A stretch of DNA of 29,459 nt from a virus: the UHGV virus genome UHGV-0099905. The stretch is one strand, 5' to 3'. Position numbers and translations under genes: made by a program. Of this stretch, positions 51 to 26,533 are shown piece by piece; the stretch's first letter is position 1, and each line of letters starts with the position of its first letter. Below the pieces are notes generated by a model that was given only the letters and a program-made list of their open reading frames with translations, searched no databases and was not told the origin of the DNA.

Positions 51-1004
51 GTGCCCAATAACCCATTAAGTCAATCCCTCTACACTGGGCGCACCGATGA
101 GTTTGGCCAAATAGAGTTTGCTTTACGAATGATGCAAGCTGAAACAGGCGCCATAGTAGGTCGCATAGGTGATGCATCAAATCGGCTTAGCGAACACACC
201 CGAGGCCTACTAAAGGATATTGAGTCAAGCAATGTACTTACAGTTGAGCAGCAGGCAGAGACAGATCAAATAGCAACGGCAGTAAACCAAATGGTGGCAA
301 GCATTCAAGAGGTTGCGAGCAATGCACAGCATGCTGCAGATGCGGCCGGAAGAGCAGACACTGAGACGGCATCTGGCCAGCGTCTGGTAGCCCACACAAG
401 CCAGTCAATCACTGCCCTTGAAGGTGAAATTAGGCAAGCCACTCAGGTTATTCATGAGCTTGAAGGTCAAAGTAACGAGATATCAAAAGTTCTTGACGTT
501 ATACGAGGGATCGCCGAGCAAACGAATTTGTTGGCACTCAACGCAGCAATTGAGGCCGCGCGTGCTGGTGAGCAGGGGCGTGGTTTTGCTGTTGTCGCCG
601 ATGAGGTTCGCAGTCTTGCTGCTCGCACACAGCAATCGACAACGGATATTCAAAGCATGATCAGCGCTCTACAAGAGCGAGCGCAATCCGCTGTTACAGT
701 CATGGAGCAAAGTAGTCGGCAAGCGCACACGAGTGTAGCTCACGCAGAGGAAGCAGCTACAGCTCTTGATGGAATTGGCCAACGCGTTAACGAAATTACC
801 GACATGAACGCGCAAATAGCGACTGCGGTCGAGCAGCAGGGAGCAGTAAGTGAAGACATAAACCGCAGTATTATCAATATACGCGATGCTGCTGATACCA
901 ATGTACAGACCGGGCAGAATAATTTGCAAAGTGCGAAATCTGTCGCTCAGTTAACTAGCGCTCTGAGCGAACTGGCAAAACAGTTTTGGGAAAAACGAGG
1001 ATAA
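51..1004 (+). CDS. Methyl-accepting chemotaxis protein, C-terminal signalling domain only (N-terminally truncated)
   Basis: Highly conserved MCP signalling motif [37 protein letters not shown]. Track start is GTG at 51; in-frame stops at 18-23 prevent upstream extension, so the periplasmic/TM part of a canonical MCP is absent. Confidence 0.75.
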
Positions 1005-2057: not shown

Positions 2058-2220
2058 CCTTAATCTCCTTCAGTGTGTCCGTGATATCTACTATGCGATA
2101 AATACGACCTCGCCTTTGCATGACACCGGCTTTTACGTAATCGTGGATACAGCTGGACATAACCAGACTTCCGATAACAATGCCGACGACTAAAAATACA
2201 AACATCCAGCCGAGCATCAT
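2041..2220 (-). CDS. Unlisted 59-aa ORF, predicted single-pass membrane peptide (MMLGWMFVFLVVGIVIGSLVM...)
   Basis: Hand translation; ATG overlaps the ligase stop codon (ATGA-type coupling); N-terminal hydrophobic helix. Confidence 0.4.
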   Translation of the reverse strand: MMLGWMFVFLVVGIVIGSLVMSSCIHDYVKAGVMQRRGRIYRIVDITDTLKEIKDDHVK

Positions 2221-3539
2221 TCTTTATCTCCAATACGATCTTCGGTATCTCGAAGACATTTAGGCCACTTCAGACGTGGATGACGCAAGCTACCATCTGG
2301 CGTTTTCTCATGGCAGTGAACCTCAACGATGCGTCCACGATACTTCTCCTGATTGTTCCAGATTTCATCCAGGTATTTATGCTTGATACCGCTGGCACGA
2401 ACGATGACGCCGTTCTCCAGACGAATCACTATCTTGCCTAGCGTATGCGCAAAGCCAGAGTCCGGATCGCCAGGCTCGAAGTCGATGACTTCACCGTCTT
2501 CTGAATCCTCGTCTTTCAGCTTCCACCAGCTGCGGGTACGTTTGAACTCGTAAACTGAATCCGGATCTTTGCCCATCTCTCCCTCTTCATTCTCGTCCAG
2601 TCGCTTCATGAAACGTTCGATGAAATCTTCGTGGCTATGGATGATGTAGAACGGATGAAGGTGGATATCTTGCGCATAATCTTCCACGCAAGTGTTGCGG
2701 AACAACGCCACCAGCATAGCCAGGCGCTCTTTCAGCTTCATACCGGTCTTCAGGTACTCTTTGCTTTTTGCTTGAGCACGCCACTCCGGTAAGAAGAAAT
2801 CGAAAATGTGGTAAACGGCACCAATGGCTTTCACGTTCTTCTTACGAAGCGCCGACACTGACTGGTTGAATGTACCTGCAGTGCCCTCTCCATCGAAGAA
2901 GATGTGATTGAAGCCGGAGAGTCTGCCCCGCTCCAGCATGGCTGGTTTAAGGTGATCGAGTGACGTAATCGGATTGCCGGTGCGCGTCAGGAAATTGACC
3001 TCACCCTCGTCCACGATGACTTCGCAGATAACCCGGAGACCATCGAGTTTGAGACTGCCGATCATTGGCCACTTGGCCTTTGGATTTGGTTTAAATGGGT
3101 ATTTGTCGCCTTTCTCCTTGTACGGAGACGCCAGCTGTACCTCAAACTTCGGAATTGGGTTTTTGAACACCTTGTTGCACAGGCTGATGCCGACACCGGC
3201 TTTCGGATCTTTCAGCAGGAAGCGACGAAACACGTCCTGCCCGTCAGCGCACATCGAGGCAACGAGTGATTCGACAGCAGCAATAGCGATGTTCCCGGTC
3301 AGTTCGCGCGCTGCCAGCTTCTCCAGCAGATCTACTACCTTCTGGTCGCTGGGTACGGAAGTATCGAGTGGCTCGGCCACTTTGTACTTCTTCACACCGA
3401 ATCGAATGAATGGATTGAGCATTAGCGAGACCATGCTCTGTTCAAATTCATCCAGATTGGCCAGCGCCTCTTTCTTGGCGTTGGTTCCCATCGTTTTAAT
3501 AGCATCCAGCTTGTGCTTTAGGGCGATCAGTTTTTCCAT
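2217..3539 (-). CDS. ATP-dependent DNA ligase, phage T7 ligase-like, with N-terminal extension
   Basis: Nucleotidyltransferase motif I KLDGLR, motif V-like RSWWKLK, and C-terminal ETPDGSLRHPR closely resembling the T7 ligase C-terminus (TPDGSLRHP) as recalled. Confidence 0.85.
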   Translation of the reverse strand: MEKLIALKHKLDAIKTMGTNAKKEALANLDEFEQSMVSLMLNPFIRFGVKKYKVAEPLDTSVPSDQKVVDLLEKLAARELTGNIAIAAVESLVASMCADGQDVFRRFLLKDPKAGVGISLCNKVFKNPIPKFEVQLASPYKEKGDKYPFKPNPKAKWPMIGSLKLDGLRVICEVIVDEGEVNFLTRTGNPITSLDHLKPAMLERGRLSGFNHIFFDGEGTAGTFNQSVSALRKKNVKAIGAVYHIFDFFLPEWRAQAKSKEYLKTGMKLKERLAMLVALFRNTCVEDYAQDIHLHPFYIIHSHEDFIERFMKRLDENEEGEMGKDPDSVYEFKRTRSWWKLKDEDSEDGEVIDFEPGDPDSGFAHTLGKIVIRLENGVIVRASGIKHKYLDEIWNNQEKYRGRIVEVHCHEKTPDGSLRHPRLKWPKCLRDTEDRIGDKE

Positions 3540-3573
3540 TAGTGTTTAACCTCCATCGGTCGCTCGGGAGTTT

Positions 3574-4049
3574 TCATGTGTTTTCTTTGGTTGCTTCTTC
3601 AATGAGTGCCGCGTACACGTCAGTGATCGACGCCAGTGAATCGGTGGGCTTGGTTTCGGATTTAGCAGGTTCTGTTTTCTTCGTGCGATGAATAAGACTG
3701 TCAATTGTCGCGGAGTTTCGCTTCCGGGGGGCGTTCTGGCATGGTCGTTTTGCTCTTCCACTTCTTTGATAAGTGAAGACATATCGATGAAGTAGAGCTG
3801 TTCGCCTTTGCGGATCTCTTCGACCATCATTTTCAGTGCCTGACATTTACCAGCAGCAATAGCCGCAGCACAGGACTGGAACGATGTAGCCGGGAGACGT
3901 TTTTCTTTATAGGCGAGGATCGTGTGTTGGCAGACTGTATAGCTGCAATGAGCCTCATGGCCGTTGAGCTTCACTTCCGGGCAGCGCAGCGAATAACCGT
4001 TGTTTCCGGAGATAGACGGGATTTTCGACAAATCTGTTCTTGTGGACAT
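3574..4049 (-). pseudogene. First gene of the ligase operon, split by a frameshift at a G6/C6 homopolymer (3726-3731)
   Basis: Track ORFs 3546-4049 and 3574-3846 are the same strand in different frames; the plausible N-terminal part (frame A) and C-terminal part (frame B, ...KPTDSLASITDVYAALIEEATKENT) join at the C6 run; each frame is low-complexity junk beyond the junction. Confidence 0.5.
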
Positions 4050-4067
4050 GCTTCTAACCGTAATCTT

Positions 4068-4096: not shown

Positions 4097-4112
4097 AGCC
4101 CCACGAGGGGCT
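4097..4112 (-). terminator. GC hairpin (AGCCCC-acga-GGGGCT) followed by a U-rich tract on the minus strand, after the 4130-4942 gene
   Basis: Inverted repeat seen directly; on the minus strand it is followed by TCTTTAA. Confidence 0.4.
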
Positions 4113-4129: not shown

Positions 4130-4942
4130 TTACCAGGTCGCCCAGCCAGTCATTTTGTCCTGAGCAGCTTCGAACCGGTATGGGTCCAGTAAATCGTTGG
4201 CATGGTGGACGGCGTAGGATTTGGCTTCTTGTTTAATCATGGGTAATTCGTTGGCCAGACGAGCCACTTGCCCTGCAAAACTGGCGAGTACTCCGTCACA
4301 TGCCTGACCCGCGTCGACAATGATGCGCACCAGGTCTAAGTCGCTGCGGCACATATCGCAGATAATGCCGTATTCCACCTCACGAATGCGCTCAACGGCT
4401 TTTTTGATATCGCCACTGACCACCAATTCCAGCAAACCAGGTGGAGTTGTCAGATCTGTTACGCGCTCGGTAACTTCAGACTGTTCGACAATACTCAGGA
4501 ACGCCGCGATGGACGGGTCATCCGCCACACCAGCTCTGACTTTGAGCGTGCGAAGAGTTGCGTCGACAATATCCTCAAACCGTTCACCTTCATCGCACAC
4601 AGTCTGATTGGTGTAGACAGTCTGATTAGTGTAGACAATGCGACCGTCGTACCATGCACCGGTACTCACTTCGACCGTTGCGTCTTTCATCTCGCGAGAG
4701 AACGCCACAAGTGCCGCGCGTTTCTGCTTAACACCTGGCAACTCCGGGGACTCTCCAAAACGAACCCAGACCTGCATGTATTTCGAGCCTTCCGAAAGAG
4801 GTGCGGCGCTCACGGACGTGGCGATATGCTCCAGCGCAGTTTGGATCGCCTCGTCGATAATCTTCTGGCGCTCTTCTGTATCAATTTCTACGCCGGATTT
4901 GTCGATGATGTCGCAGACTAACTTCTGAAATTCTTCTTTCAT
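4130..4942 (-). CDS. Hypothetical acidic protein (270 aa), monocistronic with own motif-bearing promoter and terminator
   Basis: ORF in track; AGGAG SD 6 nt before ATG; no recognisable domain by eye. Confidence 0.6.
   Translation of the reverse strand: MKEEFQKLVCDIIDKSGVEIDTEERQKIIDEAIQTALEHIATSVSAAPLSEGSKYMQVWVRFGESPELPGVKQKRAALVAFSREMKDATVEVSTGAWYDGRIVYTNQTVYTNQTVCDEGERFEDIVDATLRTLKVRAGVADDPSIAAFLSIVEQSEVTERVTDLTTPPGLLELVVSGDIKKAVERIREVEYGIICDMCRSDLDLVRIIVDAGQACDGVLASFAGQVARLANELPMIKQEAKSYAVHHANDLLDPYRFEAAQDKMTGWATW
4601..4636. repeat. 18-bp tandem direct duplication, one mismatch, in-frame
   Basis: agtctgattggtgtagac / agtctgattagtgtagac; encodes duplicated hexapeptide in ...RIVYTNQTVYTNQTV... 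of the 4130-4942 protein. Confidence 0.9.
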
Positions 4943-4982: not shown

Positions 4983-5004
4983 AATAAGTAAGTATCTACT
5001 TATT
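4983..5004. promoter_or_regulatory. Palindromic motif copy AATAAGTA-agtatc-TACTTATT
   Basis: 8-bp perfect inverted repeat, 6-bp spacer, 40-60 nt upstream of the ATG at 4942; a TATAAT hexamer abuts it in gene orientation. Confidence 0.55.
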
Positions 5005-5110
5005 ATATCGGGCGCAATAGTCTGCTATACGAAGAAGCCAGGCGTAAAAACCACTCGGATGCACATCCAGCACCCGACAAAGCAGTCGGACAGGCCAGCA
5101 ATGGGTGTTG

Positions 5111-5413
5111 TCACGGATAAAGGCGTACCTCAGTCGGACAGCTTTGCGAAGTACGCCGCGCTTTTTTTAATATGTCCCGTTCGTCGGTAACCCGCTTCAG
5201 CTCTTTCTGGAGACGGCGGATCTCGGCCTGAGCATCTGACTGTTCTTTATTAGTGGAAGAATCCGGACCGTACTTCTTTATCCAGGCATAAAGGCTGTGG
5301 GTGGTGATATCGAGACGTGTTGCAACGCTGGCAACAGAATAACCGCGATCAACAACCTGTTTGACTGCTTCAATTTTAAACTCTTCGGGATAACGCTTAC
5401 CGCTCATGGGCAC
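5111..5413 (-). CDS. IS3-family OrfA (transposase N-terminal HTH protein), probably truncated at the C-terminus
   Basis: Sequence pattern typical of IS3-family OrfA; ORF in track. Confidence 0.75.
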   Translation of the reverse strand: MPMSGKRYPEEFKIEAVKQVVDRGYSVASVATRLDITTHSLYAWIKKYGPDSSTNKEQSDAQAEIRRLQKELKRVTDERDILKKARRTSQSCPTEVRLYP

Positions 5414-5470
5414 CTCTCTTTAAGTCATCTTAAATGACTCTGAGGTGTCTATTAAACCTGTGGCGATTCA
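5111..5470 (-). mobile_element. IS3-family remnant: terminal inverted repeat plus orfA only; orfB deleted
   Basis: orfA-like product with HTH (MSGKRYPEEFKIEAVKQVVDRGYSVASVATRL...) and leucine-zipper-like tail; putative IR end TGAATCGCCACAGG (reverse complement of 5457-5470); no transposase orfB downstream; the C-terminus of orfA diverges after ...ILKKA. Confidence 0.65.
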
Positions 5471-5576
5471 ATACACTAAATCAATAAGTTGGTAGCATTA
5501 CCGATGAATTTGACAATTTAAACTAAAAAAATAAACTACGAAATAATTTTAATGTTATGTTTCCATAAACATGGTA

Positions 5577-6600
5577 GACTAGCCCATGAATCTCCAGACA
5601 GTTGGTTACAGCGCCTGCTGGGCAAAAAAACCATGGAAAACGAGCTGCTGAAAGAAGCCGTTGAATATGGCCGACAAAAAAAGTGGATAGCGCACGTGCC
5701 CTTGTTGCCGGAGGATGGTGAATAAGCCTTGTCAGTCGTTGCCTCCGGGTCTCACGTGCGCAACTGCATGCCATGGCCCGTCGGTCGAAGGGCTGGCAGG
5801 ATCGTCGGTGCAAGCGCAAGCCTGATGATACTGAAGCGCTGGCTCGTATCCATACCGTTATCGACGATCTGCCCACCTATGGTTATCGTCGTGTATGGGT
5901 ACTGCTGCGCAGACAATCAGAAACTGACGACATGGCGGTGATCAATGCCAAACGCGTATACCGCATCATGCGTCAGAATGCGCTGCTGCTTGAGCGTAAA
6001 CCGGCAATACCGCCCTCGAAGCGGGCGCATAGAGGGAAAGTGGCCGTTGGAGAAAGTAACCAGCGGTGGTGCTCCGACGGCTTCGAGTTCAGCTGTGATA
6101 ACGGTGAAAAACTGCGGATCACGTTCGCGCTGGACTGTTGCGATCGCGAGGCACTTCACTGGGCAGCAAGTACCGGTGGATATGACAGTGAAACCGTGCA
6201 GGACGTCATGCTGGGTGCAGTAGAGCGTCGCTTCGGTAACAGGCTGCCGACATCCCCCGTTGAGTGGCTGACAGACAACGGTTCAGCCTACCGTTCTCAT
6301 CAGACGCGTCAGTTCGCCAGAATGGTAGGACTGGAGCCAAAACATACGGCGGTACGTAGTCCAGAAAGCAACGGAATGGCGGAGAGCTTCGTGAAAACGA
6401 TGAAGCGCGACTACATCAGTATCATGCCAAAACCTGACGGGTTAACAGCGGCAAAGAACCTTGCGGAGGCCTTCGAACATTACAACGAATGGCATCCGCA
6501 CAGTGCACTGGGATATCGTTCTCCACGGGAATATCTGCGGCGGCGAACCAGTAATGGGTTAAGCGATAAAAAGTGTCTGGAAATATAGGGGCCAATCCAC
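5577..6600 (+). mobile_element. IS2-like element with internal deletion removing most of orfA (about 1.0 kb versus about 1.3 kb for intact IS2)
   Basis: Left end TAGACTAGCCCATGAATCTCCAGACA matches the IS2 left inverted repeat as recalled; it is joined directly to the last roughly 35 codons of InsC ([38 protein letters not shown]), followed by complete orfB; right end near GGGGCCAATCCA. Confidence 0.75.
5773..6588 (+). CDS. IS2 InsD-like transposase catalytic subunit (orfB)
   Basis: Very close match to IS2 InsD as recalled ([10 protein letters not shown]..., DNGS.YRS, rve integrase-core motifs). Confidence 0.85.
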
Positions 6601-6729
6601 ATGGAAATGTTTTTGATTAAAATAAAAAATATTCTTTTATATTGCCCTATCATTTTTATTTTTAGTAATTTATTAGCAAGAGATTGCGATCTCTTTTTTA
6701 GTTAAAGCAAATTAGTTAAGGATTAGTCT

Positions 6730-7278
6730 ATGAAACGTTCAGTTATTGCGGCTACTGTATTAGCATCTCTTTTTATGAGCGCAGGATCATTTGCAGCAGA
6801 AGGGAGTACAGAGGGTCAGTTAACTATTAACGGTAAAGTCACAGAGACTACATGTCAGTTCCTGAGCGGTAGTGAGAATACAACAATTTCGATGAGCGAA
6901 ATTGGTCGTGATCAATTTGAAAATGTAGAAGTTGGCTCCCCCGTTACTACTTATTCAAATACAACATCTTTACCACTAAAAGTTAAGTGTACCGGAGGAA
7001 AAGAACCAAGAATTACCTTCTCCAGCACCCAATTTGAAGGAACGGATTCAAATATTATTCGCAATACTGGTGATGCTAGCGGTGTCGGTTTCGCTGTTTT
7101 TTTGGGGAAAGGTACTGATTCTAGCAACCGGATTTCTGGTAATAGACCTATTAAGTTAACACCAACTACTAATGGTGAACATGAGTTACATTTTACGGCA
7201 CAATACGCAAAAACAGCTGTTGATGTGGGTACTGGCGAAGTTAGTTCTGCGATAACAATGACCGTTGTAACAGATTAA
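6730..7278 (+). CDS. Fimbrial major subunit (chaperone-usher pathway)
   Basis: Signal peptide MKRSVIAATVLASLFMSAGSFA, about 180 aa, first in operon before chaperone and usher; AGGA SD upstream. Confidence 0.7.
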   Translation: MKRSVIAATVLASLFMSAGSFAAEGSTEGQLTINGKVTETTCQFLSGSENTTISMSEIGRDQFENVEVGSPVTTYSNTTSLPLKVKCTGGKEPRITFSSTQFEGTDSNIIRNTGDASGVGFAVFLGKGTDSSNRISGNRPIKLTPTTNGEHELHFTAQYAKTAVDVGTGEVSSAITMTVVTD

Positions 7279-7333
7279 CATGATGTTTATCGGCGGCTTC
7301 GGTCGCCGATTTTCAATCGCAAGGATTGTTATC

Positions 7334-8014
7334 ATGAAAAAATTAATAGCCTTCTTACTAACCGTAACGGTCCCATCTGCGTGGGGCGGTGTCTATATTT
7401 ACGGCACTCGCGTTATTTATCCGGAACAGAAAAAAGAGATTGCAGTTCAGTTAATGAATGAAGGTGAGCGTAGTGCTCTTGTTCAGTCGTGGATTGATGA
7501 TGGCGATGCCAGCCTTCCTCCGGAAAAGATTAGTGTACCTTTTGTGCTGACTCCACCGGTAGTTCATGTTAGTAAGGGTGAAGGACAGCAACTGAAAATT
7601 AAACAACTGGCGAACACTCTACCTAAAGATCGCGAAAGTCTGTTCTTCCTTAATGTACTGGATATTCCACCTAATAGTGAGAAATACGAAGGCAAGAATC
7701 TGATTAAATTCGCGATGCAAAATCGTATCAAATTTATTTATCGCCCAAAGGGTATAACAAGAGTCGATAAAGAGAGTTTTTCCCGGATTAATATCAGACC
7801 CGTTGATAGAGGCATTAACATAAAAAATAATTCAGCGAACTGGATAACCATTCCTGAATTAACCGGGAATGCGAAAATTAATAAGGAGACACTACTGCTG
7901 GCACCCTGGTCAGATCAGACTGTCAAAACGACATCCGTTGTTAACTATTACAATGTTACTCTGATTGATGATCATGGAAACTATTTGAGTGAAAAAATAA
8001 AAACTGCCAAATAG
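7334..8014 (+). CDS. Periplasmic fimbrial chaperone (PapD-like)
   Basis: Classic chaperone N-terminal pattern GVYIYGTRVIYPE...; start moved to ATG at 7334 (MKKLIAFLL signal peptide) behind AAGGA, rather than the track start at 7280. Confidence 0.85.
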   Translation: MKKLIAFLLTVTVPSAWGGVYIYGTRVIYPEQKKEIAVQLMNEGERSALVQSWIDDGDASLPPEKISVPFVLTPPVVHVSKGEGQQLKIKQLANTLPKDRESLFFLNVLDIPPNSEKYEGKNLIKFAMQNRIKFIYRPKGITRVDKESFSRINIRPVDRGINIKNNSANWITIPELTGNAKINKETLLLAPWSDQTVKTTSVVNYYNVTLIDDHGNYLSEKIKTAK

Positions 8015-8031
8015 ATTATCAGGGATTGGTT

Positions 8032-10518
8032 ATGTCAAAGTTTAATTCTATTACACTGGCTATTCTGTCAGTATTAGCGACTTCGCATACATGGGCTAAG
8101 GGTGAAACGTTTAATACCAATTTTATGATTGGTGGTTTAAATGGGGAGAAAATTTCTAACTACCATATTGATAGTGATAAGCCGATGCCGGGTATCTACG
8201 CTATGGATGTTTATCTGAATAATCAATGGCGTGGCCACTATGATATTGATATTAAAGATGACCCTAATGCAACATGTTTATCCATGGAGCAATTAAAGCA
8301 AATTGGGATCCTCACTGAAGGAATTAGTATCGATAAAGGCGTAGAATGTGTACCACTTCGGGATGCTGTCCAGGGAGGCAGCGTCGACTATGATATTGGG
8401 CATTTTAACCTAAAATTAAGCGTGCCCCAAGCCTATGTTCTGGAATATGAACATGGCTATGTTCCGCCTGAAGCATGGGATCGCGGGATTAACGCATTAT
8501 ATACATCTTATTATGCCAGTCAGTATTACAGTGATTATAAAAACGGCGGAGATGATAAAAGTAGCTATCTAAATCTGAACAGTGGGTTAAATCTCCTGGG
8601 CTGGCAGCTGCATTCAAATGCCAATTATACGAAAAGCGACGAAAACAGCGGTAAATGGAAGAGTAACACGCTATATCTGGAACGTGGAATTCCACAAATT
8701 CTCGGCACGTTTCGCGCAGGTGAAATGTATACTGGTTCTGATGTTTTTGACTCCGTGCGTTTTCGCGGCGTGCGCCTTTGGCGCGATATGCAGATGTTAC
8801 CGAACTCTAAACAGAATTTTACTCCTGTGGTACGCGGCGTTGCCCAGAGTAACGCACTCGTCACCATAGAACAAAATGGTTTTGTGGTTTACCAGAAAGA
8901 AGTACCGCCAGGCCCATTCGCCATTGATGATTTGCAACTTTCTAATGGTGGGGCAGATTTGGAAGTTATCGTCAAAGAAGCTGATGGTTCAACGTCGTAC
9001 TATCGGGTGCCTTATTCATCGGTGCCAAATATGTTGCAACCTGGCGTTTCTAAATATGAATTTTCAGCCGGACGTAGTCATATTGAAGGAGCCAGCAATC
9101 AATCTGATTTTATCCAGGGAAGCTATAAGCATGGTTTCAACAATTTGCTGACAGGTTATGGCGGCACGCTGTTATCTGATAATTACTCATCGTTTGTTCT
9201 TGGAACAGGATGGAATACACCGATTGGTGCTATATCGGTTGATTTTACCCATTCATACAGCAAGCAAGACAACGGTGATGTGTTTAACGGTCAAAGTTAT
9301 CAGATTGCCTGGAATAAATATCTCTCTCAGAGCGGAACACAATTTTCTCTGGCGGCCTGGCGTTATTCCTCTCGGGGTTATCGTACTTTTAACGATCATG
9401 TATGGGCAAATAACAAAAATAGATACAATCGAGAAGACAACTCAGGCTATGACATTGCCAACTACTACCAGTATGATTTTGGTCGCAAGAATAGCTTTTC
9501 TTTAAATATCAACCAGTCATTACCGGAAAATTGGGGGTATCTGGCGATCAGCGGTCAATGGCGAGATTACTGGGAACGTAGCGGGACAGGGAAAAATTAC
9601 CAACTAAGCTATACGAACTCATGGGAACGTCTAAGTTATACCTTGTCGGTTAGCCAGACATACGATGAGGATAACAGCGAAGACAGACGCATTAACTTAT
9701 TTTTCTCAATCCCCTTCTCGTGGCGTGATAATATCACCGAAAAACGACGAGATTTATTTATCTCTAACTCGACCACATTTGATAAAGACGGCTACCAGTC
9801 AAATACTACCAGCCTCAGTGGTGTAGCTGGGAACCGTGATCAGTTCAGCTACGGGGCTAACTTTAGCCATCAACAACAGGACAGCGAAGCAACAGCAGGT
9901 GGAAATCTGATTTGGCGTGCGCCAGTGGCTACCATTGGTGGCAGCTATAGCCAGTCGAAAAAATATCAACAGATAAGTGGTAATATTCAAGGTGGTTTAG
10001 TCGCGTGGTCAGACGGGATAGCACTGGCTCCCAGACTTTCAGATACATTTACCATCGTCCATGCTCCGGGGCTGGATGGGGCTGCGGTACAGGGGTATCG
10101 TTACCTGAGCACGGATAGCCGAGGTTACGCTATTTATGACAGCCTGACGCCGTATCGTAAAAACACGTTGATGCTGGATACTTCTGACAGTCAAAGCGAT
10201 GTGGCACTACTGGGCAACCGTAAAAGCACCGCTCCTTATCGTGGGGCCGTTGTGATGACGCAGTTTGATACTGACAAACGTAAACCCTGGTATTTCCTTG
10301 CTCAGCGCCCGGATGGTTCTCCATTATCGTTCGGTTATGAAGTTGAAGATGAAAGCGGTAAGAATGTGGGCTTGGTAGGACAGGGAAGTCGGATATTTAT
10401 TCGCACTGATGATGTTCCCGCATCGATTCGCGTCTCGGTTAATAAACAGCAGGAACAATTCTGTACTATTACCTTTGATAAAGTTATCGAAGAGAATAAA
10501 GTTTATATTTGTCGTTAA
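8032..10518 (+). CDS. Fimbrial outer-membrane usher
   Basis: About 830 aa, signal peptide, usher N-terminal FNTNF motif, beta-barrel-type composition; ATG at 8032 behind AGGGA. Confidence 0.9.
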   Translation: MSKFNSITLAILSVLATSHTWAKGETFNTNFMIGGLNGEKISNYHIDSDKPMPGIYAMDVYLNNQWRGHYDIDIKDDPNATCLSMEQLKQIGILTEGISIDKGVECVPLRDAVQGGSVDYDIGHFNLKLSVPQAYVLEYEHGYVPPEAWDRGINALYTSYYASQYYSDYKNGGDDKSSYLNLNSGLNLLGWQLHSNANYTKSDENSGKWKSNTLYLERGIPQILGTFRAGEMYTGSDVFDSVRFRGVRLWRDMQMLPNSKQNFTPVVRGVAQSNALVTIEQNGFVVYQKEVPPGPFAIDDLQLSNGGADLEVIVKEADGSTSYYRVPYSSVPNMLQPGVSKYEFSAGRSHIEGASNQSDFIQGSYKHGFNNLLTGYGGTLLSDNYSSFVLGTGWNTPIGAISVDFTHSYSKQDNGDVFNGQSYQIAWNKYLSQSGTQFSLAAWRYSSRGYRTFNDHVWANNKNRYNREDNSGYDIANYYQYDFGRKNSFSLNINQSLPENWGYLAISGQWRDYWERSGTGKNYQLSYTNSWERLSYTLSVSQTYDEDNSEDRRINLFFSIPFSWRDNITEKRRDLFISNSTTFDKDGYQSNTTSLSGVAGNRDQFSYGANFSHQQQDSEATAGGNLIWRAPVATIGGSYSQSKKYQQISGNIQGGLVAWSDGIALAPRLSDTFTIVHAPGLDGAAVQGYRYLSTDSRGYAIYDSLTPYRKNTLMLDTSDSQSDVALLGNRKSTAPYRGAVVMTQFDTDKRKPWYFLAQRPDGSPLSFGYEVEDESGKNVGLVGQGSRIFIRTDDVPASIRVSVNKQQEQFCTITFDKVIEENKVYICR

Positions 10519-10528
10519 AGGATTTTTT

Positions 10529-11539
10529 ATGAAGAAATATTGGTTTTTGTTTTTGTTGATTATTCCATTTTTTGGGCAGGCGAAATGTACCCCTAAGGGA
10601 ACTTGGACAGCAACTCAACCAATTACACTGGACTTAACAACGGATTCAACAATAGTAAGTTTTAATCCCAACCTGCAAGGATCTTATGAATGTAACTCGA
10701 GGGGGGATAAGATGTATTTTGCAACAACGTTAGATGACTATATTGTTGAAATGAAAGATGGCTCCAGCAATAAGTCTATTTTTATTAAATTAAAGCTTGA
10801 GGCTGATGGATTTCCTGTAGAAACGAGTGGTTCGCTTCTGTCGCCTAAAACCTATTCTGTTGCTGATACCATTAATAATAAACAACTGAAGTTAACGGCC
10901 TCATATATACCACCAACTAAATATAGAAGTGATCGTGGTGAAGCGGTAGAGGGGGATTCATTCGAATTGAAAAAAGCGGCGGCTAATTTTTTGTCTGATA
11001 ATACATGTAGTTCAAATATTCTTTCATGGATAGCATGCTATGTTTTTGGATTGTTAAATAAAGGTGAAGCTTACGAACAAAAACTAACCATTAATGTTAA
11101 ACACAAACCCACAACCTGTCGTTTCTCGCAACCGACTTACGAAATAAGAATACCAGAAACAACGATAAGTGAAATGCTATCTGCCAATAACTCAAAATCA
11201 GGTTCTGTAGATCTGGTCCTAAATTGCGATAGTGTCTATAACGTCACGACTAATCCAGTGACTTTTAAAGTTGAGCGTGGTGTGTGGGATGATAGTGGAA
11301 CAATATTGAAAAATACATTGTCCGATGGTGCTAAGGGTGTAGGGTTCCAGATTTACAATGGTAATGCAACGACACCGTTAAAGCTGGGCGATACCCTGAT
11401 GAACAGATTACCTAAAATGGCGGCTATTCAGGAGCAGTACATCTTCCCGATTACCGCAAAATACGTTCGCGTGAAAGAGGAAGCTTTACAGCCTGGGGAA
11501 GTTCAAGGCCAGGCGATATTTGCCGTATCCTACGACTAA
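10529..11539 (+). CDS. Fimbrial minor subunit / tip adhesin candidate (two-domain size, about 337 aa)
   Basis: Signal peptide MKKYWFLFLLIIPFFGQA starting at ATG 10529 after SD AAAGGA; the track start at 10409 overlaps the usher and is rejected. Confidence 0.6.
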   Translation: MKKYWFLFLLIIPFFGQAKCTPKGTWTATQPITLDLTTDSTIVSFNPNLQGSYECNSRGDKMYFATTLDDYIVEMKDGSSNKSIFIKLKLEADGFPVETSGSLLSPKTYSVADTINNKQLKLTASYIPPTKYRSDRGEAVEGDSFELKKAAANFLSDNTCSSNILSWIACYVFGLLNKGEAYEQKLTINVKHKPTTCRFSQPTYEIRIPETTISEMLSANNSKSGSVDLVLNCDSVYNVTTNPVTFKVERGVWDDSGTILKNTLSDGAKGVGFQIYNGNATTPLKLGDTLMNRLPKMAAIQEQYIFPITAKYVRVKEEALQPGEVQGQAIFAVSYD

Positions 11540-11566
11540 TGAGCATGGTGGTTAGTCGCTACTTTT

Positions 11567-11600
11567 CACGTACTTTCGGAGAGAAAGTACGTGTGTTTTT
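11567..11600 (+). terminator. Rho-independent terminator after the fimbrial operon
   Basis: 11-bp perfect stem CACGTACTTTC / GAAAGTACGTG, 5-nt loop, followed by TGTTTTT. Confidence 0.6.
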
Positions 11601-11717
11601 ATCCAGAGCGCCCTAAAACCCCGTCCTTCAGAGTGGAGGTATAAGGCGCACTGGATAAAATGATGGAGTAGTGGGCAATTAAGCTCTATAATTGCGTACA
11701 CATATTGAGTACACGAG

Positions 11718-11945
11718 GTGTTTATGCAATCTATTAACTTCCGTACCGCACGCAGCAATCTTACCGAAGTGCTCAACAATGTTGAAGCCGGAGAAGAGGT
11801 TGAAATCACCCGTAGAGGCCGTGAGCCAGCTGTAATTGTCAGCAAGGCCACTTTCGAAGCCTACAAAAAAGCGGCGCTGGATGCTGAATTCGCATCCCTG
11901 TTTGACACTCTGGACACCACCAATAAGAAACTGGTTAACCGATAA
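11718..11945 (+). CDS. phd: Phd antitoxin (P1-type)
   Basis: [64 protein letters not shown]... is near-identical to P1 Phd as recalled; overlaps doc by TAATG. Confidence 0.9.
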
Positions 11946-12322
11946 TGAGGCATATATCACCGGAAGAGCTTACTGCAATTCATGATGCGAATATAAGCCG
12001 CTACGGCGGCCTGCCAGGCATGTCAGATTCGGGAAGAGCTGAGGCTATTATCGGGAGAGTCCAGGCCAGAGTTGCATATGAAGAGATTACCGACCTTTTC
12101 GAAGTCTCCGCAACTTACCTGGTGGCTACTGCGAGAGGGCATATATTCAATGATGCCAATAAGCGTACCGCGCTAAACAGTGCGTTGTTATTTCTGCGCC
12201 GTAACGGTGTGCAGGTATATGATTCACCAGAACTGGCAGAGCTTACTGTGGGGGCTGCGACCGGAGAGGTATCCGTATCTACTGTCGTTGCCACGTTACG
12301 TAGATTGTATGGTACGGCGTAG
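11945..12322 (+). CDS. doc: Doc toxin (Fic-fold kinase, P1-type)
   Basis: MRHISPEEL...[26 protein letters not shown]... matches P1 Doc as recalled, including the Fic-like HxFxDANKR motif. Confidence 0.9.
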
Positions 12323-12455
12323 TAAATTAATGGTACGCAAATACAACAAATTGTCCCGTGACGCGTTAAAGATGCTTCTTGATGGGGTGAGCAGCCGCAA
12401 GGTTATGAATCGCCACGGATAATTTAGACACTTCCGAGCCGTTGATAATACTGGT

Positions 12456-13640
12456 TCAAACTAATGCAGCTATGCCTTTTACCTTGCTTAAAAGTTCAAG
12501 CTGTCGTGAATAAGGTTTTGCGCAATAGTAGGCTTTGATAATCTGCCCCGGTGTCGCATCGCCGGGATCGAGTCCTTCCTCGCCCAAACACGCTACTTTG
12601 ACATTAAGACCGATACTGGTCAGTCGCCTGGCTGCGGCCATCGTGTTGCGTATAGCTTGCTTTTCACTATCCCACATCATAATCACATTACGTAATCCAC
12701 GCGCCTTGAGCGTCAGGAACGCGCCCAACTGATCTTCTGCATCCTGAGTGGTGTTACCAGATAGATGCATCCCGAACGTTCCTATCGGTTCCACGTAATC
12801 GCGTAATGTTTCTTCATCAAAAATAGCTCGTTTAACCCCCATAACATCGAACGCCCCCTCACAGACAACTACAGTCTGTTTGCCGACTGCATTGTGGCCG
12901 TTGTAGAGAAATTTACCCGATGCTGGCAGCTGCATGGGGAACAGATACCGGCGTTCTGCTGCACCGGTAATGTCACGACCCTGGAAGGTCTTCATCACGC
13001 CATCCAGATCGTAAACCGGTATCAGTATTCGCATATCGAATACCTGTCCTTTGACCTGGTCTGTGTACGGATCGACGTATGCGTGCTTGCCTTCGACGCA
13101 GTAACGCAGATCAAAGTATTTGGCCAGCTCCGGGGAAATCTGGCGCTCCACCAGATAATCAGGAAGACGACCGTCAATGGGGAGTTCGTAATGGCGCGGG
13201 AGAGCTACCGGTCCTTCCAGTTCAACCTTGCTGGCCAGCACGATCTCTTCCTTCTTCGGCGCCCAACCTTGTGAGATCAGCGCGTTCTGGACGTACTCTT
13301 CAAAATCGCGACGGGATTTGCCGCTGTAATGCTTTAGGAAGACCAGCTTATTGAACTGAATCTCTTCGGGATGATCACCTGCAAAGCATTTGCCGACACC
13401 ACTGGTCAGGTTGAAATAAACCTTCCAGTTTGAGCTGCCGCATACCGGACACTCTTTAATGTTGACCTCTCGTCCGCGAGTACTGACTCCACCATGACGG
13501 TAGATGATCCCTTCCATATCGAGCCATTGCTCAAAATCCAGCTCGGTCAGTAATTCTTTCAAGTCGCTCACGTTCTTACCCCTGTTTTTTGCAGGTAATA
13601 TCTTGATAAGCCTCGGTATTTGAATACCATAAAGGCTCAT
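12456..13640 (-). CDS. DNA primase (zinc-ribbon N-terminus plus TOPRIM-like core)
   Basis: CPVCGSS...C...H zinc-binding pattern and acidic TOPRIM-like segment VVVCEGAFD; start placed at ATG 13640 (MSLYGIQ) rather than the upstream TTG of the track. Confidence 0.6.
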   Translation of the reverse strand: MSLYGIQIPRLIKILPAKNRGKNVSDLKELLTELDFEQWLDMEGIIYRHGGVSTRGREVNIKECPVCGSSNWKVYFNLTSGVGKCFAGDHPEEIQFNKLVFLKHYSGKSRRDFEEYVQNALISQGWAPKKEEIVLASKVELEGPVALPRHYELPIDGRLPDYLVERQISPELAKYFDLRYCVEGKHAYVDPYTDQVKGQVFDMRILIPVYDLDGVMKTFQGRDITGAAERRYLFPMQLPASGKFLYNGHNAVGKQTVVVCEGAFDVMGVKRAIFDEETLRDYVEPIGTFGMHLSGNTTQDAEDQLGAFLTLKARGLRNVIMMWDSEKQAIRNTMAAARRLTSIGLNVKVACLGEEGLDPGDATPGQIIKAYYCAKPYSRQLELLSKVKGIAALV

Positions 13641-13694
13641 GTGTTTTTTCTTTTGTGGTTTTGGCAAAAGAGAAATTTGTTCTCTTCTGGAGAC

Positions 13695-13729
13695 AGGCGT
13701 GGAGAGTGTTTCCCCACGCCTTCTTTTTT
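13695..13729 (+). terminator. Plus-strand-oriented hairpin plus T-run, between minus-strand helicase and primase genes
   Basis: AGGCGTGG / CCACGCCT 8-bp stem followed by TTCTTTTTT on the plus strand; on the minus strand an A-run precedes the hairpin. Confidence 0.4.
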
Positions 13730-15068
13730 AGAGGACGTCCATAATGCGTTCGATGAATCGCATTTGTTCGAGGTTCTGCTTAACGCGGATGCTTACGCCG
13801 CCTTTCTGGTTACGTGAACCAGCGAAGTAAAGACGCGCTTCGCCTTTCGCTTCTTCTTCTTCCGTTTTGTTGATAGTGATAACGAGGTCAGCGATACGCA
13901 CCTTCTCGATGTTGTCCGCTGCGTGCATCATTGTAGCCACCTCAGAAGCGCCACCTTCTCTGTTAGTCTGCGATGCCGTGATGCCGGCAACGTTGTGTTT
14001 GTCGTACAGCGCACGCAGGTCAGTGTAGATGCTGCGAATGTTAGCGCGGTCGTCGCGGAGGTCGTAGCTGGCACGCATCAGGTCAGCGTAGTCGACCACA
14101 ACCATATCGGGGACCATACCGTTGGCTTTCATGCTGCCCAACATACGGTCCAGATCTGCGGGCGACATGCTTCCGGACGGTCGTTCAACAATCCACAAAC
14201 TTCCCACGCCTTTCGTCGCACCCAGCTCCGCCAGTTTGCGATGGACGTCATCGCGACGTTCCACCAGCCTGGACATTTCGGTCTCAGACAGACGGGCGTC
14301 AAAGCGATCTGACAGAATGGAGGTGTGAACTTCCAGCGACAGATACAGGACGTTGTAACCGGCAAGCGTGGCGTTGATGGAAAACTCCCCCATCGCCGTC
14401 GATTTACCAGACTTAGCGAAGCCCATAAACAGCACCATTTCACGCTTTGCCCAGCCTTTCTGGTAAAGCAGTTTGTCGAGCAGCGGGAGGCCGGTAGTGA
14501 TGCTGTTTGGCACGTAATCGTCGGACGCTTCGTACTCACGGGCCTTGTAACGCTCCGCTGATTCTGCGAAGTAATCGTAAATGCCGGTCGCTTCGTTAGA
14601 GCCAATTTGCTGGACCTTAGCCATGATTGCCATCGCGCCCTGGAAATCGCCCTTCTCTTTCATCTCAGCCGCTTTAATTAGCGCATCGTCGAACGCTACG
14701 CTTTTAGCAAATGTCGCGACCTGGTCGACCATGTACGCCGTATCTGACAGCTTCTCAGCGAGAATGCGCTTAAACGCCTCAACAACGTCAGGGAACAGCT
14801 CTTCGCGGATCGTCTTATCGCGTTTGGCGCGTTTGAGCATGTCGAGGATGGCTGATGATGATGGTGCGCTCTTATACATTCTGTAGTAGCCCGACACCAT
14901 GTTAACCAGAATGGAGTTAGCCGCATTAGAGAACTGGTTTGGGGCAACCAGATCGCCTGCGCGAGTCAGAAACTCATGGTCGCGACAGAAGTAGGCAGCG
15001 AGTCTATTCTGGAAGTCGTCGTCGAACTCTTCAGACAACCCTCGTCCTGTGTGGCAAAGTTCGGTCAT
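13728..15068 (-). CDS. Replicative DNA helicase, DnaB family
   Basis: Walker A GFAKSGKST, RecA-like C-terminal domain with DnaB-type motifs; 446 aa; diverged from host DnaB. Confidence 0.8.
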   Translation of the reverse strand: MTELCHTGRGLSEEFDDDFQNRLAAYFCRDHEFLTRAGDLVAPNQFSNAANSILVNMVSGYYRMYKSAPSSSAILDMLKRAKRDKTIREELFPDVVEAFKRILAEKLSDTAYMVDQVATFAKSVAFDDALIKAAEMKEKGDFQGAMAIMAKVQQIGSNEATGIYDYFAESAERYKAREYEASDDYVPNSITTGLPLLDKLLYQKGWAKREMVLFMGFAKSGKSTAMGEFSINATLAGYNVLYLSLEVHTSILSDRFDARLSETEMSRLVERRDDVHRKLAELGATKGVGSLWIVERPSGSMSPADLDRMLGSMKANGMVPDMVVVDYADLMRASYDLRDDRANIRSIYTDLRALYDKHNVAGITASQTNREGGASEVATMMHAADNIEKVRIADLVITINKTEEEEAKGEARLYFAGSRNQKGGVSIRVKQNLEQMRFIERIMDVL

Positions 15069-16136: not shown

Positions 16137-16904
16137 ATGGACGATTTATCGGTATACGCGAGATCATTGGATAAGGCTAAATACTATGTTTACTGTCTCT
16201 ATGATACAGAAGACAAGATGAAAAGACCGTTTTACATAGGAAAAGGCAAATCGACTCGTTGTCTCGATCACATCAAGTATCCCGATGACTCTCCCAAATC
16301 CATGCGGATCAAAGAACTTTTGGCTAATAAAAAATTAGGCATAGATATTCTTCGTCATGGTATGGATGAAACCACAGCCAAACTTGTTGAGGCGACATGC
16401 ATCGACCTTATGGGTGTCGGAGAGCTTACGAATAAGGTACGAGGAAGTGGTTCCATGATGGGCAGAATATCACTGGACGCCTACCATCACTTAGTGCTGC
16501 AAGAGGAAACTGAAATTGCTCCTGAGCACGCCGGTCTTGCCTTCCTGCTAAACAGCACCTACAAGTCAGGAATGTCCGCTCTGGCATTATATGAAGCTAC
16601 GCGTGGCGTATGGGCAAAGGTTCCAAGAGACGAGAATCTCAAATATGCCTACGCTACATATGGGGGCCTGATAATGGAAGTTTATCAGATTGAATGCTGG
16701 GTCAAAGCCGGTTCTCAGCAGTACTTTACAAGGGATATAGCTCTTGGCCCCGACACAAAACGTTATGAATTTGTTGGCAGAATAGCCGATGAGCATATTA
16801 GAAAACTGTATGTAGGCAAATTAATCAAGAAGCCACCAAGCTACGGCAGCCCTTTTGTGAAGGTTGGGGTGGTTAGGAATGAACATAGTGTTAGCGCGGC
16901 ATAA
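16137..16904 (+). CDS. GIY-YIG nuclease-domain protein with uncharacterised C-terminal domain
   Basis: N-terminal KYYVYCLYDTEDKMKRPFYIGKGKSTRCLDH fits the GIY...YIG...R...H pattern with a downstream Glu; about 170-aa C-terminal region of unknown fold. Confidence 0.6.
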   Translation: MDDLSVYARSLDKAKYYVYCLYDTEDKMKRPFYIGKGKSTRCLDHIKYPDDSPKSMRIKELLANKKLGIDILRHGMDETTAKLVEATCIDLMGVGELTNKVRGSGSMMGRISLDAYHHLVLQEETEIAPEHAGLAFLLNSTYKSGMSALALYEATRGVWAKVPRDENLKYAYATYGGLIMEVYQIECWVKAGSQQYFTRDIALGPDTKRYEFVGRIADEHIRKLYVGKLIKKPPSYGSPFVKVGVVRNEHSVSAA

Positions 16905-25012: not shown

Positions 25013-26533
25013 TTAACTGATGCCCGACATGGAAAATGCGCCACTTCCACGGCTGATTAGCATCACGGGCGAATAAATATGTGTCTGTGATGAACTGGTC
25101 ACTTTTACCGTAACAGCAACAGTTCTTGAGGTAACATTGTTAAAAGCAGCGTAAAGAGTGCCACCGACGCCTGTAGAACTTGTCGAATTAAGATCAGGGT
25201 CTCTGTATGTTGCCCCCTTACCAGTGGTTGCGGTCTTCGTCACTCCATTGCAGGTAAATTGGGCTGCAACAGGGCCGACGCCCCCCGTATATACATTTAT
25301 TGCCACATAAATATTTTTGGGCAATGCAGACGAAGAAGAGTCTGTATATGTCATTGTATATGTGCCGTTGTAACGAACTGAGAAGTCATTGCCCACATAC
25401 ATGTTAGCGACATCGCCTACGAAGTGATCTGCTTGTACCGTGCCTCTGAATGTTCCGCTGGTAGCCTGTATTTCTCCTGTGAATTTGCCATTCGTTGCGT
25501 AAACGGTGCCTCTAACAGTTACATTGTTAAACTCTGAGTTCCCGTTTTTATTAATATGCCACCCCGTCATCCCGCTTGAGTAATCGTTGGACTGAATGAA
25601 GTTGCCTATTTTGGCGTTATCAATGGTGCCGTTCTTGATATAAGCTCCGTTCATATAAGCCACACCGGCATCAATAACGAATGGCGTTGTAATTTTCCCA
25701 TTAACGGAGTTCACCAAACCAAAGCGATCTGCCTGCACCAAAAACTGCGATAGACCTGTTGTGTCGATGCCCAACGCTATGCCGGCAACATATTTTTGGC
25801 CTCCGCTGGTGGAGGTTTCCATTTTCAGCGTCCAGGCTGTTGATACCTTCTTGTTCGTATCAGCAATAGCTGTGGCCTGTTGTTGAATTGTTGCTGTATT
25901 TCCATCTACTGATGCTTTTAAGGTGTCAACTCTCCCACTTAGTGCATTGTCGGCGCTTGACGCATCAAACGTCACCTTGAAGCGCATCGTCTGGTGTTCA
26001 GCGCCGACTCGCTCGGTTTTCTCGCGTTTGTCCTCATCGACCGGCTCGTCATCGCCACGGGAGAGCGCTTCCAGCGCTTCAAGATCGATAACGGACGCTT
26101 TGGCGAGTGTTGCCGCCATTTCGTCGTCATACGGGGCGATATCGGACAACCGGTAGTCGATTTCAGACTGGATTTCTTCGATTAAGCGCTGCAAAGCGAC
26201 CTGATCGTCTTCGCCGTAGCGCTCGTTGTCGACGAGGGAAATCTGTTTAGCCACCAGATCGTTAATTTTGCCCACGGAGATGACGGGAACCGTTGAAATG
26301 CCCTGCTCCATCGCGGCACGCCAGCGGTGTTCACCACCGAGGATCTCAAAAATGCCCCCGTCCAACTCCCGCGCCAGAATTGGCTTAAAAAAGCCCAATT
26401 TTTCGATAGAGCCTTTCAGTTTTTCGAAGTTTTGCGCCCCAACGGAGTTGGTATTCCAGGGATTCGGACGCAGGTTCGCGACTTCCACCTGCAGAATCGT
26501 AATTTTCACACCCATAATTCTGATACAATCCAT
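25013..26533 (-). CDS. Chimeric protein: N-terminal ParB/Srx-like nuclease domain fused to a lambda J-type (host-specificity / tail-tip) C-terminal region
   Basis: N-terminal LRPNPWN...ILGGEHRWRAA resembles ParB box motifs; an acidic linker follows; the C-terminal half (FLVQADRFGLVNSVNGKITTPFVIDAGVAYMNGAYIKNGTIDNAKIG...) resembles the C-terminal receptor-binding part of J-like proteins; single uninterrupted ORF. Confidence 0.55.
   Translation of the reverse strand: MDCIRIMGVKITILQVEVANLRPNPWNTNSVGAQNFEKLKGSIEKLGFFKPILARELDGGIFEILGGEHRWRAAMEQGISTVPVISVGKINDLVAKQISLVDNERYGEDDQVALQRLIEEIQSEIDYRLSDIAPYDDEMAATLAKASVIDLEALEALSRGDDEPVDEDKREKTERVGAEHQTMRFKVTFDASSADNALSGRVDTLKASVDGNTATIQQQATAIADTNKKVSTAWTLKMETSTSGGQKYVAGIALGIDTTGLSQFLVQADRFGLVNSVNGKITTPFVIDAGVAYMNGAYIKNGTIDNAKIGNFIQSNDYSSGMTGWHINKNGNSEFNNVTVRGTVYATNGKFTGEIQATSGTFRGTVQADHFVGDVANMYVGNDFSVRYNGTYTMTYTDSSSSALPKNIYVAINVYTGGVGPVAAQFTCNGVTKTATTGKGATYRDPDLNSTSSTGVGGTLYAAFNNVTSRTVAVTVKVTSSSQTHIYSPVMLISRGSGAFSMSGIS

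Follow-up and report, generated by a model that had tools for sequence, protein, structure and literature searches.

A gene split at a run of six cytosines

We analysed a stretch of 29,459 nucleotides (hereafter the window) in which a frameshifted gene (3574-4049, minus strand) lies between a gene for a 270-aa hypothetical protein (4130-4942, minus strand; phrog_4248) and the gene for a 440-aa ATP-dependent DNA ligase, which is the next gene downstream (2217-3539, minus strand; PF01068, E = 5.6e-12; phrog_114). Two overlapping minus-strand ORFs cover the frameshifted gene, one at 3546-4049 (167 aa) and the other at 3574-3846 (90 aa). A single intact protein is matched by codons 1-108 of the 167-aa ORF together with the final 49 codons of the 90-aa ORF, and the rest of both ORFs is out-of-frame sequence. 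The break falls at a C6 homopolymer (3726-3731, minus strand; G6 on the plus strand); the whole window has only four G/C runs of at least six bases. Codons 1-108 (3726-4049, minus strand) are in frame with the start codon and correspond to a compact domain by alignment and structural modelling, while the C-terminal part (3574-3725, minus strand), which comprises a basic linker and the motif DVYAALIEEATKENT and ends with the original TGA stop (3574-3576), is now out of frame. The shifted frame extends over 3546-3573 (minus strand) to a new stop, the TAA at 3546-3548.

Comparison of positions 3560-4060 with pYLPI6a and S56 plasmid B showed that the only difference in length is one base at the C run, which reads C6 in the window, C7 in pYLPI6a and CTCCCCC in S56 plasmid B. 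Both plasmids carry a single 477-nt CDS over the gene span, encoding 158 aa. When repaired to C7, the window sequence matches phrog_5055 over positions 1-154 of 155 (E = 1.7e-91), and the window copy spans the same positions in two frames; a match of this strength over the full length argues that the fusion is not a chance reading. Full-length homologues were found in phage SSU5 (90.5% identity) and in nine further phage records (64-69% identity). The SSU5 gene, SSU5_043 (AFL46970.1), is annotated as a single 477-nt CDS beside the ligase and has the same neighbours as the window copy, a 264-270-aa hypothetical gene on one side and the ATP-dependent ligase on the other; the window copy differs in having lost one C and in being shifted at codon 109. 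The ORFs at 3546-4049 and 3574-3846 are thus the halves of one gene split at the C6 run. The first-pass annotation had described two ORFs, each half plausible and half junk, which would fuse upon a one-base change in the tract, and had pointed to homologues as the test; the homologues bear this out, since they hold a single conserved ORF, and neither two separate conserved genes nor a lack of conservation in both frames was seen among them. The window copy is a pseudogene of the phrog_5055/SSU5_043-like family and not an intact member, because, relative to the start codon, its C-terminal motif is encoded in the -1 frame.

This frameshift is already known and is carried as a pseudogene in public annotation. 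RefSeq RG42_RS26805, on plasmid A of E. coli D9 (NZ_CP010153.1), is labelled 'hypothetical protein; frameshifted' and is 100% identical in DNA with the same coordinates, so that there is no difference between it and the window gene, and our observation re-discovers an existing annotation. The span 3574-4049 given by the first-pass annotation is exactly that of the pseudogene called by PGAP in the D9 plasmid. PGAP applies the term 'frameshifted' to the gene span in six RefSeq plasmids (D9, YPE3, YY76-1, YZ22PE244, 2017-01-4CC and CUPF06). No mention of the ligase, a frameshift or a pseudogene was found in one recent phage-plasmid survey.

Origin and content of the window

The window corresponds to ENA ERZ1744943 NODE_363_length_29459_cov_15.09 and belongs, as a contig, to a phage-plasmid of the SSU5/pHCM2/pMT1 type from E. 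coli. Plasmids of 114 kb from E. coli D9, D4, YPE3 and others match the region at 100% identity, and all matches in complete E. coli genomes (48/48) are located on plasmids. More distant matches include Yersinia pestis pMT1-type, Salmonella and Citrobacter plasmids as well as phage SSU5 and its relatives; SSU5 is referred to as a recognised phage-plasmid type in PMC7969092. The window also encodes a DnaB-like helicase, a DnaG-like primase, ParA and tail-fibre genes. Scans for Rfam families and tRNAs gave no matches in the window.

Several other features of the window were observed. A cargo island, highly mosaic between plasmids, occupies approximately 5000-12400 between the primase and the 270-aa gene and contains IS3-family remnants (5111-6588), a yehD-like fimbrial operon (6730-11539) and the toxin-antitoxin genes phd/doc, the doc-like ORF of which lies at 11945-12322. 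In the island-free plasmid NT1F34, the primase, the 270-aa gene, the orthologue of the frameshifted gene and the ligase are directly adjacent. The C-terminal part of a methyl-accepting chemotaxis protein (MCP) is encoded at 51-1004 (plus strand) as cargo on the phage-plasmid; at the equivalent position a full PAS-domain MCP is annotated next to IS26/IS1 in pLAO59 and pTAir-3, and the tRNA genes found there in other relatives are absent from the window. A 255-aa ORF at 16137-16904 (plus strand), on the opposite strand within the replication/partition region, matches a LEM-3-like GIY-YIG nuclease (E = 5.5e-7), and a 506-aa ORF at 25013-26533 (minus strand) shows an unusual pairing of an N-terminal ParB_N domain (E = 8.5e-13) with Phage_Tail_Tip (E = 5.2e-46).

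The 270-aa gene itself varies among relatives. An 18-bp tandem duplication (2.2 copies) at 4599-4637 encodes VYTNQT-VYTNQT, and the orthologue in SSU5, SSU5_042, is shorter by 18 nt (795 vs 813 nt). In YZ22PE244, a G-to-T change at approximately window position 4381 creates a premature stop and the gene is split by PGAP into two CDSs, so that this C6 plasmid has lost a second gene of the module.

The C6 allele is widespread among plasmids

Homopolymers are classic sites of indel errors and the coverage of the contig, according to its record name, is only about 15x; a sequencing or assembly error in a metagenome contig was one of the explanations considered. A 79-nt probe was identical (C6) to 7 of 38 complete E. 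coli plasmid records, while the other 31 match one base longer (80 nt). In PLSDB, C6 was present in 8 of 42 close records, including one Enterobacter plasmid, which brings the distinct C6 records from both sets to nine. Their sources are dog, pork, cow, pig, human and air samples in several countries. An exact copy of the 167-aa shifted product was found on 92 contigs in 146 index blocks (NCBI drafts, ENA and Logan), and the three main intact alleles on 183, 218 and 223 contigs.

Random homopolymer error cannot explain a C6 allele that unrelated laboratories obtained in nine complete plasmid records and that is present on 92 contigs, short-read drafts among them, nor can it yield the linkage of C6 to specific SNPs described below. 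An error is extremely improbable and this option, raised by the first-pass annotation, is excluded by the recurrence of the allele.

C6 is confined to a single local haplotype

From 4942 to approximately 2650, all C6 copies have a single local haplotype in common, which is that of pYLPI6a (C7) apart from the deletion. The C7 allele with S140 is the nearest intact allele and was used as the comparison group. Comparison of 10 C6 contigs with 10 C7/S140 contigs showed that a SNP at 3159, located 570 bp from the tract, separates the two groups perfectly; no mixing of C6 and C7 within a haplotype was seen among these 20 contigs. Local linkage was used in place of a comparison of the 8.8 kb upstream, where a clean C6 clade was sought and not obtained: the island is too mosaic, and certain C7 plasmids resemble the window more than certain C6 plasmids do.

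C6 nevertheless occurs on two backgrounds, which differ in a block of approximately 66 SNPs at the 3' end of the ligase gene (2217-2625) and in the upstream fimbrial island. The same block is present in QL57EC, a plasmid with an intact gene, and the window-type background is the only one on which the intact C7/S140 allele was seen. We read the two C6 backgrounds as the outcome of recombination after a single origin, because the C7/S140 allele was seen on only one of the two; the alternative would be a second, independent slip on the same local haplotype. Within the block, which covers the 3' third of the ligase gene, D9, YPE3, CUPF06, YZ22PE244 and QL57EC differ from the window at approximately 66 of 79 variable sites, and they are nearly identical to it upstream of 2650. 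The small genes downstream of the ligase also switch type (71/50/96 aa vs 59/70/50/101 aa).

No sign that the tract acts as a switch

The first-pass annotation had also proposed a slippage-prone switch controlling the first cistron, that is, a C tract whose length changes often and reversibly and turns the gene on and off. The position of the homopolymer exactly at the break and the presence of both C6 and C7 among near-identical plasmids would fit such a phase-variable locus. However, the tract is short (six to seven bases), and no length other than C6 or C7, such as C5 or C8, was seen among the close relatives (38 E. coli records and 42 in PLSDB). C6 was found on a single haplotype, in perfect linkage with the SNP at 3159, and frequent flipping would scramble this linkage, which argues against fast switching. 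The tract is interrupted (CTCCCCC) in many relatives and absent in SSU5, and is thus not a conserved device. Two-way variation of tract length among identical or clonal genomes, by which phase variation is recognised, was not found. The contingency loci of Neisseria, Haemophilus and Campylobacter share with this gene a coding-region homopolymer whose length sets the reading frame, but the window tract, unlike theirs, is short, not conserved and without a series of lengths, and its C6 form is clonally inherited and linked to SNPs. We consider a switch very unlikely, and the data do not support it.

A related possibility is that the two frames are joined during expression, by ribosomes slipping by -1 on CCC CCC, ahead of the rare GGA codon, or by transcriptional slippage, so that some full-length protein is restored and expression of the gene is reduced rather than dead. 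The sequence would permit this: a -1 slip after CCC CCC re-pairs perfectly, and CGG AAG CGA then follows in the native frame. The arrangement in two frames is, however, kept in no homologue, all full-length homologues being single ORFs, and a canonical X XXY YYZ heptamer is absent. The runs known to give efficient transcriptional slippage are far longer than C6. Any protein made in this way would be a by-product at low level rather than the outcome of a programmed event, and we regard recoding as highly improbable.

Of the three explanations put forward by the first-pass annotation, a real pseudogene is the one favoured by the data. At the site of the tract, SSU5 reads ACG CTT ACC CGT (CTTACCCGT) and has no homopolymer, many E. 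coli plasmids read ACG CTC CCC CGG, and a subset reads ACG CCC CCC CGG. The run thus grew by substitution, from CTTACCCGT in SSU5 through CTCCCCC to C7, and C7 then lost one C in the window lineage, most likely by replication slippage. The C6 copies carry no additional mutations downstream of the shift, which indicates that the deletion is recent and that relaxed selection is not yet visible.

The frameshift leaves the cysteine domain and removes the tail

An exhaustive profile search (E < 1e-3) gave 193 representatives of the family, and conservation was judged on an alignment of 75 sequences, down to 21-34% identity. In this alignment C23, C40, C60, C69 and E78 are invariant, and S12, N17, Y37, A71, M74 and G82 are nearly so. 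All five invariant residues lie within the in-frame part of the window ORF. The first-pass annotation had suggested metal binding from a Cys/His cluster in this half; metal binding remains plausible, with C23 and C40 as candidate ligands, but the cluster as such does not hold, since H31, H34 and C35 vary, H42 is kept only among close relatives, and the invariant set of cysteines is C23, C40, C60 and C69.

AlphaFold2 gave an unusable model with 22 close homologues (pLDDT 46), while the 75-sequence alignment yielded a prediction in which residues 10-100 form a beta-hairpin followed by four helices (pLDDT approximately 95), residues 105-143 a low-confidence linker and residues 145-156 a helix. 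In the alignment the linker varies in length and sequence, whereas a (D)xYAxxI(N/E) motif, here DVYAALIEE, persists throughout; its YAxxI(N/E) core is conserved even in relatives of 25-30% identity. In the window this motif, encoded at 3574-3725, is not in frame with the N-terminal domain. The shift at codon 109 keeps the whole cysteine domain: translation would yield residues 1-108 with the four cysteines intact, followed by 59 unrelated, out-of-frame residues in place of the basic linker and the conserved, docking-type C-terminal motif. In line with the pseudogene call in RefSeq, the gene is presumably inactivated, at least in part; the untouched N-terminal domain could retain activity.

No match to the family was found in Pfam or NCBIfam, nor in the PDB by sequence or profile, and no fold match to known zinc-finger, zinc-ribbon or Fe-S families was detected. 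A DciA-like helicase loader has a similar layout (folded domain, disordered linker, terminal helix) and was considered, but sequence and fold lend it no support and the likeness is one of analogy. A wider family is formed by the proteins of phrog_4558 (130-230-aa phage proteins), which share the four invariant cysteines and E78, the layout of a folded N-terminal domain, a variable linker and a short conserved C-terminal motif, and the location between primase and ligase. They are, however, only 21-34% identical, and most are longer, with an extra C-terminal helix (G-x-S-x-L-E-x-A-R).

Damage to the C-terminal part was also observed in other copies. Plasmid p1 of E. coli I3 carries an independent 13-bp deletion, equivalent to window 3627-3639, which removes the C-terminal motif while the C7 tract is intact, and its gene is called 'incomplete, missing C-terminus' by PGAP. 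Several other variants diverge at residues 101-123; some of these may be errors, as their source is metagenome or draft data. Such damage in several copies fits relaxed or negative selection on the tail and proves neither.

Signals around the ligase start and upstream of the gene

The native stop (3574-3576) lies 34 nt before the ligase start. The shifted frame crosses the ligase Shine-Dalgarno sequence, GGAGG at 3550-3554, and stops 6 nt before the ligase ATG; since it ends at 3546-3548, translating ribosomes would come to a stop over the start region of the ligase.

Between the 270-aa gene and the frameshifted gene lies a terminator-like, GC-rich hairpin (4097-4112, minus strand; AGCCCC-UCGU-GGGGCU followed by UUCUUU). 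Alignment showed that it is kept, with a better T-run, in the diverged plasmid NT1F34, and its stability is no greater than that of shuffled whole-spacer controls (z = -0.49). The interval from the hairpin to the start codon yielded no sigma-70-like promoter. The hairpin is a possible transcript boundary. The claim that the gene is the first of a ligase operon is plausible only: the conserved pairing of gene and ligase and the terminator-like hairpin upstream speak for it, while no promoter was found.

Gene order around the primase and the ligase

The order DnaB, DnaG-like primase, often a protein of about 260 aa, the protein studied here, and ATP-dependent ligase was found in six independent distant contexts and in SSU5. 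The ligase is adjacent in four of the distant contexts, separated by two small genes in one and by 3 kb in another, and the protein of about 260 aa fills the position of the 270-aa gene. The same order is seen in SSU5 and in the island-free plasmid NT1F34. In the window the primase and DnaB genes (12456-15068) are split from the frameshifted gene by the fimbrial/IS island. Judging from gene order, the protein is probably an accessory factor of the replication module, and it may consist of a metal- or cluster-binding core with a flexible tail that docks on a partner. A role as a zinc domain acting in trans for the primase is unlikely, the primase having its own CPVC...C..H motif.

Discussion

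We consider it highly probable that a real and heritable one-base deletion, from C7 to C6, which is stable over the time covered by the sample, has at least partly inactivated a gene for a putative replication accessory factor that would be dispensable in the plasmid state. The elements that carry C6, and their relatives, live as plasmids, and resistance islands are located nearby in many of these relatives. Such an element may persist without the protein, as maintenance in the plasmid state would not depend on the lytic replication module, and loss of the gene would then be tolerated.

The likeliest of the alternatives is a functional truncated product. In this case the N-terminal domain with its four cysteines would keep its activity or change it, and loss of the tail would be selected in plasmid-borne lineages, for example by damping lytic replication; or the shifted ORF, ending 6 nt before the ligase ATG, would couple translation of the ligase to its own, to the benefit of the element. 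This would agree with an N-terminal domain that is intact and confidently folded in the model, with an allele that is common (92 contigs) and present on two recombinant backgrounds, with the independent C-terminal disruptions in I3 p1 and other variants, and with a new stop codon that overlaps the ribosome-binding region of the ligase. Conservation of the C-terminal motif across the family argues, however, that the tail is needed for normal function, intact alleles are several times more frequent (183, 218 and 223 contigs), and the frequency of C6 could equally reflect hitch-hiking on successful resistance plasmids; some of the other truncated variants may also be errors. A functional truncation is in our view unlikely, and inactivation by the deletion is the reading that we retain.

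A bolder proposal would unite phrog_5055 and phrog_4558, a widespread set of phage proteins, in a new family of metal- or Fe-S-binding accessory factors of the replisome or ligase, with selection for the repeated C-terminal truncation in E. coli plasmid lineages. We hold this combination to be rather unlikely; if it were true, selection on the truncation, and not neutral decay, could cripple lytic replication or retune translation of the ligase.

The frameshift itself is ordinary, a pseudogene in a known group of phage-plasmids that spreads resistance and fimbrial cargo. Its practical use may be that of a lineage marker, as C6, S140 and the reference base at 3159 jointly define a widely disseminated plasmid clade. 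Of more interest is a by-product of the analysis, namely an uncharacterised, conserved four-cysteine family located between primase and ligase.
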